A stretch of DNA of 64,000 bases. It comes from an uncultured Spirochaetaceae bacterium (GTDB taxonomy: Bacteria > Myxococcota_A > UBA9160 > UBA4427). The notes beneath the pieces are model-generated. The model made no database searches, was not told where the DNA came from, and saw nothing but the letters and a program-made list of their open reading frames with translations. The position numbers and the translations under genes were made by a program. This document shows, piece by piece, positions 34,905 through 36,904 of this stretch. Where the stretch lies: NCBI GenBank assembly GCA_964565565.1, contig CAZMFM010000005.1, positions 21,292 to 85,291 of the forward strand, read 5' to 3'. Within the stretch, counting starts at the first letter, position 1. Each line of letters opens with the position of its first letter.

Positions 34905-36104
34905 CTACCGCAGCCCTTCTTCGATCGCGCGGAAGAAAGCGATGGTTTCGACTTCGCGATAGGCAGATTCATCCAACGAAGTGGCGTAGTCGCTATTCGC
35001 CGACAACTTCACGATGACGACATTCTGGGTCGGATTCACATAGATGAATTGATTATAGACGCCGATCGCTGAGTACGCGGACTCGTCCCCTTCCATGATC
35101 CACCATTGGTAGCCATAACCCATGGGATAGTCGGATTGAGGGTTCTCGCCGGGCATCAAATGGGGCGCATCGGGGGTCGTCGAGGCCTTCACCCAGGCCT
35201 CGGGAACGATCTGCTGACCTTCCCAATAGCCATGATTCAAATAGAGTCGTCCGAGCTTCGCATAGTCGCGGAGCGTCGCGTTCAAGCCGCCGAAGGCCAT
35301 CTCCATCCCAGTGTCGTCGGTCAGCCAATAGGCATCGTATTCCATACCGAGCGGCTGCCATAACTTGTCCTGCATATAGCTGGCAATCGTCTTCCCCGTC
35401 ACGTTCGCGAGCAGCATGCCTAGCACCTGGGTATCCGTACTATTGTAGAGATTGAAGGTGCCCGGTTCGCGTTCTCGTTCGAGGGTCGCTGCGAAATCAT
35501 TGAGCGATCCCCCCGTGGCGAAGACAAGCCCAAATCGACCAATATCCGAATCGGGATCGCTGTAGTCTTCGTTCCACCGTGCCCCGGAAGACATTTGCAG
35601 GATGTCCTTGATGCGAACGCCGTCGTAGGCCGATCCAGCGAGGGACGGCACATATTGCGTCACGCTCTCCTCGATCGACTCGATGAGTCCTTCTTCTATC
35701 GCGATACCCAGGAGCGCGGAAATGAAGCTTTTGGCAACCGACATCGAGAGCCAACGCGTTTCCTCGCTCGCCCCAAGGTAATATTGCTCGAAGCGGATTT
35801 CGTCATCCTTGATGATCAGCAGACCCACCGTATCGGTTTCGGCTAGCAGAGCCTTTGAATCACGCCTCTCCCCCTTGAACGCATAATCCAAGGGCAAGCT
35901 GATTTCGTCACCTCTCGCAAAGCTGAATTTCGCGCTGGGGCCATAGACCGCATTTGTCGGAAAGATTTCGTTCAAGCGTCCGAAGCGTTCGCTTTGTTCG
36001 CTGCCGGAAAAGAGTGAGCCCACGAAGGGAGCCCGCTCGGGAAAGGAGCCCTGTGCGCAACCGAAGGCGAGGACTAGCAATACGGTCGAGGACCAGAATT
36101 TCAT
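34905..36104 (-). CDS. Serine hydrolase, beta-lactamase/transpeptidase-like family
   Basis: Start at ATG 36104 (MKFWSSTVLLVLAFGCAQG signal/lipobox), overlapping the stop of the upstream redoxin gene (ATGA at 36101-36104). SxxK motif in SMSVAKSFISALLGIAIEEG. Confidence 0.85.
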   Translation of the reverse strand: MKFWSSTVLLVLAFGCAQGSFPERAPFVGSLFSGSEQSERFGRLNEIFPTNAVYGPSAKFSFARGDEISLPLDYAFKGERRDSKALLAETDTVGLLIIKDDEIRFEQYYLGASEETRWLSMSVAKSFISALLGIAIEEGLIESIEESVTQYVPSLAGSAYDGVRIKDILQMSSGARWNEDYSDPDSDIGRFGLVFATGGSLNDFAATLEREREPGTFNLYNSTDTQVLGMLLANVTGKTIASYMQDKLWQPLGMEYDAYWLTDDTGMEMAFGGLNATLRDYAKLGRLYLNHGYWEGQQIVPEAWVKASTTPDAPHLMPGENPQSDYPMGYGYQWWIMEGDESAYSAIGVYNQFIYVNPTQNVVIVKLSANSDYATSLDESAYREVETIAFFRAIEEGLR

Positions 36105-36904
36105 CCGAATGATTTTCCATCTTGCTGTGAATTGTCTGGTTTTGGGCCGAACGCGTCGTTTAACGCCGCCAATACACGATCGGGTCGAGAACGCTCCGTA
36201 TAATCCGTCGCTTGATCGATCCAACGAATGATGCCATCGCCATCCGCCAGAATCGTCGTGGGTGTCGGCAAGCCCGAGACGCCGGGCGGCGTGACCTTCG
36301 GAGCCGTGTTTTCGATTCCGTAGCGCCGCGTCACGGCCAGGTCCCGGTCGGACAGCATGATGGCCTGCGCGCCGTGTTTGCTCTTGCCCTTCGCGATTTG
36401 TCGTGGCGTATCCGTACAGAGTGTCACCATCTGAACATCATACGAGTCGAGGTCGGCCCGCAGTTCTTCCCATCGCCGTAACTCGGCGACACAATAGGGT
36501 CACCAATGGCCCCGAAAGAATTTCATCAGGATCGGGCGACCGTTCAAGCGTGCCAGATCAAAGCTCTTCCCCTCGTCATCCAGTGCGGTAAAGGTCGGCA
36601 GCCGGCCACCGACCGCGATGGCCGGCGATTGATTCGATTGAGACGCGAGCGCCTGAAGCCCGACCGCAATGGCGCCGAAGGCCACTGTCACGCCCGCCAG
36701 AATGCCCCCGAGCAGGCCCGGATCCTGGGTCAGCGCGGTGATGCCGATGACCAGCGCCGTCACGATCATCAGCGAAGGGAGTCGCCGCCCCTCCGCGACT
36801 TCGACACGGCGGATGAGTCGCATCCAGAGCCCGATCCCGGTTGAGATCAGTGCGAAGCCCACAATCGCGAGTCCGAGTCCAATCATGTTCGAAGCCTCCT
36901 TCAT
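36101..36904 (-). CDS. Membrane-anchored AhpC/TSA-redoxin (thioredoxin-fold) protein with in-frame UGA at the CxxC position (probable selenoprotein, UxxC)
   Basis: Track ORFs 36500-36904 and 36101-36430 are in the same frame and separated by one TGA (36500-36502). Read-through gives ...GRPILMKFFRGHW-U-PYCVAELRRWEELRADLDSYDVQMVTLCTDTP..., a 267-aa redoxin with about 3 N-terminal TM helices. Confidence 0.7.
36472..36490 (-). promoter_or_regulatory. Candidate bacterial SECIS hairpin
   Basis: mRNA GUCGCCG-AGUUA-CGGCGAU is a 7-bp stem with a 5-nt loop containing GU. The stem starts 9 nt after the UGA and the apical loop lies about 17-21 nt downstream. Confidence 0.4.

Follow-up and report, generated by a model that had tools for sequence, protein, structure and literature searches.

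The 64,000 nucleotides (nt) analysed here, positions 21,292 to 85,291 of contig CAZMFM010000005.1 from an uncultured Spirochaetaceae bacterium, are called the window throughout, and all coordinates refer to it unless a locus is named. On its minus strand lie two neighboring open reading frames (ORFs) that are separated by an in-frame TGA at 36502-36500. The results given below indicate that this TGA very probably codes for selenocysteine (Sec) within one gene, which encodes a membrane-anchored redox protein of the thioredoxin fold and belongs to the family known as Prx-like 1. This family was predicted as a selenoprotein in marine metagenomes already in 2008; the finding is an annotation correction and not a discovery, it leaves existing knowledge of selenoproteins unchanged, and the gene is not novel in kind.

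Two open reading frames and one gene

The original prediction, made from the window sequence, was that the two ORFs share a frame and are split by the TGA, and both the translation and the ORF list confirm this. When 36904-36101 is translated in one frame, the product reads ...LMKFFRGHW*PYCVAELRRWEEL..., with no further stop before the TGA at 36103-36101. After the interrupting codon, which sits within the minus-strand motif FFRGHW-U-PYCVAELRRW, the same frame runs on through CCC TAT TGT (P-Y-C) for 132 codons. Furthermore, when the TGA is read as cysteine (Cys), it is spanned by matches to PF00578 (AhpC-TSA; 78 bits at a cut-off of 26, 7.9e-22) and PF08534 (Redoxin; 73.8 bits, 1.6e-20), each covering residues 98-241. 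Read-through thus gives the AhpC/TSA-redoxin core that had been expected of it. The upstream half by itself matches neither of these models, and the downstream half barely passes with PF00578 (29.5 bits).

The output of the ORF finder would also fit two independent genes, a small protein with three transmembrane (TM) helices, closed by the TGA, and a shortened redoxin with its start at ATG 36430. However, the start Met of the downstream ORF is kept in just 9 of 193 orthologues, and a Met anywhere within 40 codons of the TGA is present in 54 of them. The 23 codons between the TGA and ATG 36430 are the most conserved stretch of the family and hold half of its redox motif, and the Cys homologues, among the matches listed, are all single proteins of about 260 amino acids (aa). 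In other loci, sequence homologous to the upstream half is found next to the TGA in 213 cases and sequence homologous to the downstream half in 228. Because the Pfam domains cross the TGA, both halves are conserved and the downstream half has no conserved start, the locus is taken to be one gene, as had been proposed; two separate genes are considered extremely improbable.

The start of this gene had been placed at 36904, as in the ORF finder's list, and here the earlier assignment needs revision. Because a Shine-Dalgarno sequence lies 8 nt upstream of the ATG at 36886-36884, and because this start leaves 122 residues ahead of FFRGHW, which is the modal value of the family in the homologue alignment, ATG 36886 is probably the start codon, with ATG 36904 as the alternative. 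A start at ATG 36886 also fits the family N-terminus, MxGxxLG...

Cysteine and TGA forms among the relatives

An alignment of homologues had been suggested as a check of what occupies the TGA position, and it gives either Cys or TGA. A protein search yielded, among the matches listed, 120 full-length homologues of about 260 aa that are 42-62% identical to the query. All 120 have Cys at the TGA position (119 as FFRGHW-C-PYC and one as H-C-C-PYC), and none of those listed ends there.

To find the TGA form, the exact pattern GGN CAY TGG TGA CCN TAY TGY GTN GCN GA was scanned against a set in which each species is represented by a single genome. At least 120 instances, from no fewer than 119 species genomes, show this form and two open halves; the median number of open codons is 143 on the 5' side of the TGA and 120 on the 3' side. 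Among the organisms that carry it are Halieaceae and other Pseudomonadales, Myxococcota, Alphaproteobacteria, Verrucomicrobiales, Planctomycetota, Acidobacteriota, and Binatia, and one carrier, gamma proteobacterium NOR5-3 (locus L004, DS999407.1), is cultured. Metagenome contigs were scanned with the same pattern, but with TGN in place of TGA; the first 120 matches listed comprise 113 TGA, 5 TGC, and 2 TGT, a ratio that depends on the sample. In total, species genomes and metagenomes provide 233 orthologous loci with the TGA and both halves open. For the family, an error or a private nonsense mutation is excluded, because the TGA form recurs in many independent loci. The nearest relatives of the window gene, L089 and L211, are TGA forms.

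Further observations concern individual loci of this set. L016 and L089 come from the same Myxococcales metagenome-assembled genome (MAG), UWMA-0330 (DUCN01), which has two TGA-type copies on two contigs; one of these copies is the closest relative of the window gene, 66% identical to it in the first half and 76% in the second. In L029, two TGA-type copies stand in tandem at positions 1058 and 2177, 1.1 kb apart. A marine-type gene is also carried by L092 (CAMCBY010000378.1), labelled as a Klebsiella pneumoniae MAG, and by L074 (CAZFZX010000120.1), labelled as an Enterobacteriaceae MAG; these two contigs are probably mis-binned.

A hairpin fixed in the TGA forms

A 7-bp hairpin with a GU-containing loop had been noted at the spacing expected of a bacterial selenocysteine insertion sequence (SECIS). 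Folding recovers it, with a stem of 7 bp, or of 8 bp with an optional U36491.G36471 pair, and a free energy of -10.2 to -11.0 kcal/mol. The hairpin begins 9 nt past the UGA and its AGUUA loop 16 nt past it, and the whole is encoded by the V-A-E-L-R-R codons. The model published for SECIS elements in bacteria specifies a loop of 3-9 nt, a stem of 4-16 bp, a G at one of the loop's first two positions, a distance of 16-37 nt between UGA and loop, and a minimum free energy of -7.5 or lower (PMC13188914), and the window hairpin agrees with it on every one of these counts.

The decisive evidence for a putative SECIS, however, is the fixation of codons in the TGA forms only, not the hairpin alone. 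A comparison was made between 182 TGA forms that encode VAELRR and 13 Cys forms with the same peptide. Among the former, the hairpin codons are nearly invariant (GTC in 180, GCC in 181, GAG in 180, TTA or TTG in 179, CGG in 180, and CGA in all 182), and the P, Y, and C codons immediately 5' of the hairpin vary freely. The 19-mer GTCGCCGAGTTRCGGCGAT is present exactly in 174 of the 182 TGA forms and in none of the 13 Cys forms. In the Cys forms, Leu is encoded by CTG or CTC in 12 of 13 cases (Fisher p = 1.3e-15 versus the TGA forms) and the second Arg by CGA in 2 of 13 (Fisher p = 2.7e-16). The window copy has the TGA-type codons GTC GCC GAG TTA CGG CGA, and its 19-mer is the second commonest variant of the consensus. 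TTA makes up 1.2% of the Leu codons in the long ORFs of the window, yet it is used in the hairpin. In addition, there is covariation: a GCC to GCT change (Ala) is paired with CGG to CAG (Arg to Gln) in 7 distinct variants, with no case of a broken C.A pair. Variants with Lys re-register the stem as GCCG...CGGU, and their second Arg codon is now CGG.

The change of the first Arg to Lys is found in L063, L145, L151, L182, and L185 (VAELKRW), and also in L069, L115, L137, and L230. An alternative stem for such Lys variants is the bulged GCC-G-AGC/GCUGGC, in which the structure is kept with changed pairing partners.

Two sister sub-groups, B and C, share GHW-U-PYCVAEL and then diverge: sub-group B goes on with [YSD]ALQ and sub-group C with VKLE. 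The UGA is followed in B by the hairpin GCNGAGC-UGUAU-GCUCUGC and in C by a short GAGCU/AGCU stem. The peptide motif is thus shared, while the SECIS would differ from one sub-group to the next. Sub-group B consists of L003, L005, L008, L032, L049, L057, L064, L085, L092, L138, L140, L166, and L214, and sub-group C, from Verrucomicrobiales, of L028, L054, L059, L134, L167, and L237.

The codon comparison also bears on whether the TGA of the window itself could stem from a TGC or TGT in an ordinary Cys-type redoxin gene, altered by a mistake in sequencing or assembly or by a new nonsense mutation. One base change would suffice, and there are many Cys homologues. Nevertheless, the window copy carries the codon signature of the TGA forms, its nearest relatives are themselves TGA forms, and the divergent TetR neighbor seen at 10 of 13 Cys loci (see below) is not beside it. 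Such an error or mutation is thus very improbable.

Selenocysteine machinery and the genetic code

Genes for Sec insertion were searched for in the window and in all fetched loci by tblastn with Escherichia coli SelA, SelB, and SelD, and tRNAs by ARAGORN. In several orthologous loci such genes lie next to the TGA-type gene. In L018 (Halioglobus), positions 2-5138 hold, on one strand, selA, an ORF, selB (2146-4062), the TGA-type gene (4132 to about 4880), and tRNA-Sec (5047-5138). In two alphaproteobacterial loci, L034 (3494-5372) and L035 (4413-7979), tRNA-Sec lies about 170 nt upstream of the TGA-type gene and selD is nearby, all within about 1.5 kb; L035 has selA as well, in the order tRNA-Sec, TGA-type gene, and then divergent selD and selA. 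Finally, selB abuts the TGA-type gene in L046, L058, L091, L106, L110, L195, and L198, which form one Myxococcota-like clade. A Sec-insertion gene is thus found beside the TGA-type gene in about 11 of the 233 loci, in spite of short flanks, and in three lineages. Together with the Cys of all 120 listed homologues, the 233 TGA loci, and the codon fixation limited to the TGA forms, this linkage upholds the original prediction of a selenoprotein.

There are several points that weigh against this conclusion. Neither selA, selB, selD, nor tRNA-Sec is present in the 64-kb window, where ARAGORN finds zero tRNAs of any kind, and the Sec competence of the organism has to be inferred. The fold of 81 nt around the hairpin is not unusual (z = -0.31), a 7-bp hairpin also occurs in 3 of the 13 Cys forms, where it arises from the GC-rich VAELRR codons, and the covariation is confined to one base pair. 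Rfam gives no match to any of its families, SECIS models included, in the window at the gathering threshold and in 36380-36560 at E <= 10. In the reviews that list the family, selenium incorporation is only 'predicted' and is experimentally proven for no member (PMC9312934, PMC13188914). The absence of sel genes from the window is uninformative, because 64 kb of a multi-Mb genome need not hold them. The fold z-score and the bare hairpin were both tried as proof of a SECIS and rejected, the first as not significant and the second because those 3 Cys forms fold likewise.

A window that holds no sel gene and no tRNA-Sec would also fit a recent pseudogene, in which the ancestors encoded Sec, the lineage then lost the machinery, and translation now stops at the TGA; the gene neighbors in the window, which are unlike those at all other loci, point the same way. 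However, the frame is intact for the 132 codons past the TGA and shows 76% aa identity there to the nearest orthologue, the SECIS 19-mer is a common variant, and the Shine-Dalgarno sequence is undamaged, as are the start and the ATGA-coupled stop; besides, the sel genes would not be expected in so small a part of a genome. A pseudogene is therefore regarded as improbable. A functional gene, in which the UGA at 36502-36500 would be decoded as Sec in the source organism, accords better with these features.

It is also conceivable that UGA now encodes one of the standard amino acids, Trp or Gly, but nothing more than the in-frame TGA itself speaks for this. TGA terminates the Pfam-supported APH, DUF4156, and HEAT genes of the window, and the selenoprotein gene itself, at family-typical lengths; the homologues have Cys at the TGA position and not Trp or Gly; and the carriers are Proteobacteria, Myxococcota, and similar groups that use the standard code. 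Reassignment is hardly credible.

Fold, membrane anchor and proposed chemistry

The structure was approached through an AlphaFold2 model of a Cys homologue, P0001 (pLDDT 91.6, pTM 0.86), which was also used for Foldseek. Three helices, 3-26, 30-53, and 57-81, precede a thioredoxin fold in the model. The top Foldseek match is Sulfolobus Bcp4 (3hjp; E = 2.5e-11, TM-score to target 0.91), which places the fold with the peroxiredoxin (Prx) type, and ResA (4nmu) follows at 0.84. The loop between the first and second TM helices is rich in Lys and Arg (K/R) in the family profile, which suggests, by the positive-inside rule, that the catalytic domain lies on the cytoplasmic face.

In the alignment to ResA, the Sec falls on the nucleophilic Cys, the first of W-C-x-x-C, which supports the earlier statement that U takes the place of the first Cys of WCxxC. 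The second Cys is the counterpart of the BCP peroxidatic Cys. When the protein is compared with BCP 2cx3, the Prx motif PxxxT/SxxC is kept only at its Cys position, Pro being replaced by Arg and Thr/Ser by Sec or Cys. The scores with NCBIfam models of related redox proteins are below cut-off (ResA, 35.8 versus 170; TlpA, 24.1 versus 230; DsbE, 22.7 versus 359), as are those with NCBIfam selenoprotein models (WAxxUGC_long, NF041054, 30 versus 300; SelL_rel_redox, NF040769, 22.6 versus 120; PrxU, NF040737, 18.3 versus 270). The likely chemistry would be a thioredoxin-like selenol/thiol-disulfide exchange via a selenenylsulfide, rather than canonical peroxiredoxin catalysis.

These features lead to the following model. 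The window from 36886 to 36101 (minus strand) would be a single gene for a Prx-like thiol:disulfide oxidoreductase selenoprotein of about 261 residues. Just past the UGA, the mRNA would fold into a SelB-binding SECIS hairpin with a stem of 7-8 bp and an AGUUA loop. In the protein, three N-terminal TM helices would tether the thioredoxin-fold domain to the membrane; the Sec would sit where the thioredoxin/ResA CxxC has its attacking, N-terminal Cys, and the Cys three residues on would be its partner. The protein would perform selenol/thiol-disulfide exchange through a selenenylsulfide intermediate at the membrane surface.

Features and gene neighborhood

Table 1. Coordinates of the gene, its proposed elements and its downstream neighbor in the window
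Feature	Position	Strand	Basis
Proposed selenoprotein gene, 261 codons including Sec	36101..36886	-	read-through translation; Pfam match spans TGA
Upstream ORF, ends at in-frame TGA	36904..36500	-	134 aa, ORF list
Downstream ORF, same frame as upstream ORF, start ATG 36430	36430..36101	-	109 aa, ORF list
Shine-Dalgarno AAGGAGG, 8 nt 5' of ATG 36886	36895..36901	-	read from sequence
N-terminal membrane anchor, three predicted TM helices	36644..36886	-	family hydropathy and K/R profile; AlphaFold2 model of P0001
Thioredoxin-fold AhpC-TSA/Redoxin domain	36182..36613	-	PF00578, PF08534; Foldseek
UGA predicted to be read as Sec, first position of the U-P-Y-C redox motif	36500..36502	-	Cys/TGA alignment of homologues
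TGT, predicted partner (resolving) Cys of UxxC	36491..36493	-	aligns with BCP peroxidatic Cys and ResA second Cys
Putative bacterial SECIS hairpin: 5' arm 36490-36484 GUCGCCG, loop 36483-36479 AGUUA, 3' arm 36478-36472 CGGCGAU	36471..36491	-	folding
ATGA, stop of the selenoprotein gene overlapping the start of the next gene	36101..36104	-	read from sequence
Beta-lactamase-family serine hydrolase gene, downstream neighbor, outside the conserved unit	34905..36104	-	PF00144, 9e-39

The ATGA overlap with a beta-lactamase-like hydrolase gene had been taken as a sign of likely co-translation. The overlap is real and the neighbor is a PF00144 gene; however, the arrangement is local to the source genome, is absent from the other loci, and says nothing about the function of the family. 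When the ORFs within 6 kb on either side of the TGA were clustered across all loci, no widely shared neighbor was found, and the beta-lactamase, MFS, and APH neighbors of the window are not common to the other loci.

The Cys-type homologues have a neighborhood of their own. At 10 of 13 Cys loci, a divergent gene for a TetR-family regulator (PF00440/PF02909) stands upstream at a distance of about 100 nt, and such a neighbor is found at none of the 233 TGA-type loci, nor in the window. In five of the Cys loci, L243-L247, the gene occupies 3001-3800 and the TetR gene about 2200-2940 on the minus strand; the others are L190, L194, L204, L219, and L232. This restriction of the TetR neighbor to Cys forms suggests that the two forms, Sec and Cys, make up distinct branches that are regulated differently.

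These observations allow a more specific hypothesis, in which the three-TM sub-group with FFRGHW-U-PYCVAELRRW would be a distinct membrane-tethered selenoenzyme, kept almost exclusively as the Sec form in marine Proteobacteria, Myxococcota, and other phyla. The near-frozen SECIS, the repeated adjacency to Sec loci, and a TetR-regulated Cys form that is a separate and mostly non-marine branch are pointers to it. On balance this is unlikely; if true, it would hint at a role in selenium or selenoprotein metabolism itself, or at a 'core' selenoprotein through which the Sec trait is maintained.

Elsewhere in the window, 150 same-frame ORF pairs are split by a TGA, a number that is unsurprising because the window is 61% GC; when they were examined for other selenoproteins, the redox motif was present only in the gene reported here. 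A separate feature, at 17582-34387 on the plus strand, is a run of very large ORFs (911, 959, 1782, 678, and 710 aa), several of which overlap at their ends. No Pfam match was obtained for the 1782-aa (24877-30225) and 710-aa (32255-34387) products, and the 678-aa product matches only a HEAT repeat.

Consequences for annotation

As it stands, gene callers split the gene into two meaningless ORFs, and the NCBIfam and Rfam models cover neither the protein sub-family nor its SECIS. The lack of an NCBIfam model may be the reason that pipelines split the gene. Consequently, hundreds of genomes and MAGs probably carry a wrong annotation of this gene. A simple and specific marker for recovering it is the 19-mer given above when it follows TGG-TGA-CCN-TAY-TGY. 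In addition, the gene is further confirmation that marine bacteria favor Sec in thioredoxin-fold redox proteins.

Comparison with known families

The family appears in a study of the Sargasso Sea, where it was called 'Prx-like protein' and was represented by 22 Sec and 4 Cys sequences (PMC1088965). In the selenoproteome of the Global Ocean Sampling (GOS) data it is 'Prx-like 1' (pfam00578, UxxC), with 225 selenoproteins (Zhang and Gladyshev 2008; PMC2398784). Supplementary file 3 of that work lists, under '#Prx-like 1', a read with VLLKFFRGHWUPYCVAELRRWEELRGEFDEKG..., a second one that has the TM N-terminus (...SPYLLKFFRGHWUPYCVAELKRWQEL...), and a third with ...KFFRAHWUPYCIAELKRWEEL... (PMC2398784). 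Over 130 aa, the first of these reads and the window protein share 54% identity (E = 2e-53). Reviews of 2022 and 2026 name a 'Prx-like thiol:disulfide oxidoreductase, PF00578, UxxC/UxxU' in their lists of predicted selenoproteins (PMC9312934, PMC13188914). 'UPYC' was not found in the main texts of the literature, the motif being located only in the GOS supplementary data, and the main text of the BSepDB paper does not name the Prx-like family. No literature was found that links NOR5-3 or Halieaceae to selenoproteins. In the literature on the Prx-like family, no discussion was found of the three-TM anchor, the near-invariant SECIS across phyla, the linkage to sel genes, the excess of Sec over Cys forms as seen in the metagenome sample, or the TetR gene beside the Cys forms.

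The window protein has the PF00578 domain, a UxxC aligned to the conserved Cys, and homology to the published dataset, and it is assigned to Prx-like 1 on these grounds. It is like that family in its domain, in having U for the first Cys of UxxC, in a SECIS directly after the UGA, and in its mostly marine occurrence. In both sets of marine data Sec forms outnumber Cys forms, by 22 to 4 in the Sargasso Sea and by 113 to 7 among the first 120 metagenome matches listed. Nothing essential differs; the published bin is broader and includes soluble forms with other residues between U and C.

With the ResA/TlpA proteins, such as Bacillus ResA (4nmu), the window protein has the thioredoxin fold and the W-C-x-x-C arrangement in common. 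However, those proteins have one anchor or signal sequence and are extracytoplasmic, whereas the window protein has three predicted TM helices and a charge bias that suggests a cytoplasmic domain. The PrxQ/BCP proteins, Sulfolobus Bcp4 (3hjp) and Aeropyrum BCP (2cx3), are the best structural matches and, like the window protein, match PF00578. Their peroxidatic Cys nevertheless corresponds to the second Cys of the window UxxC and not to the Sec, and the catalytic Pro and Thr/Ser are lost in the window protein. True Sec-containing peroxiredoxins, furthermore, carry TxxU and not UxxC (PMC1088965). Finally, the proteins described by NF041054, NF040769, and NF040737 are also thioredoxin-fold selenoproteins or their relatives, but the window protein matches these models only weakly, far below their cut-offs.

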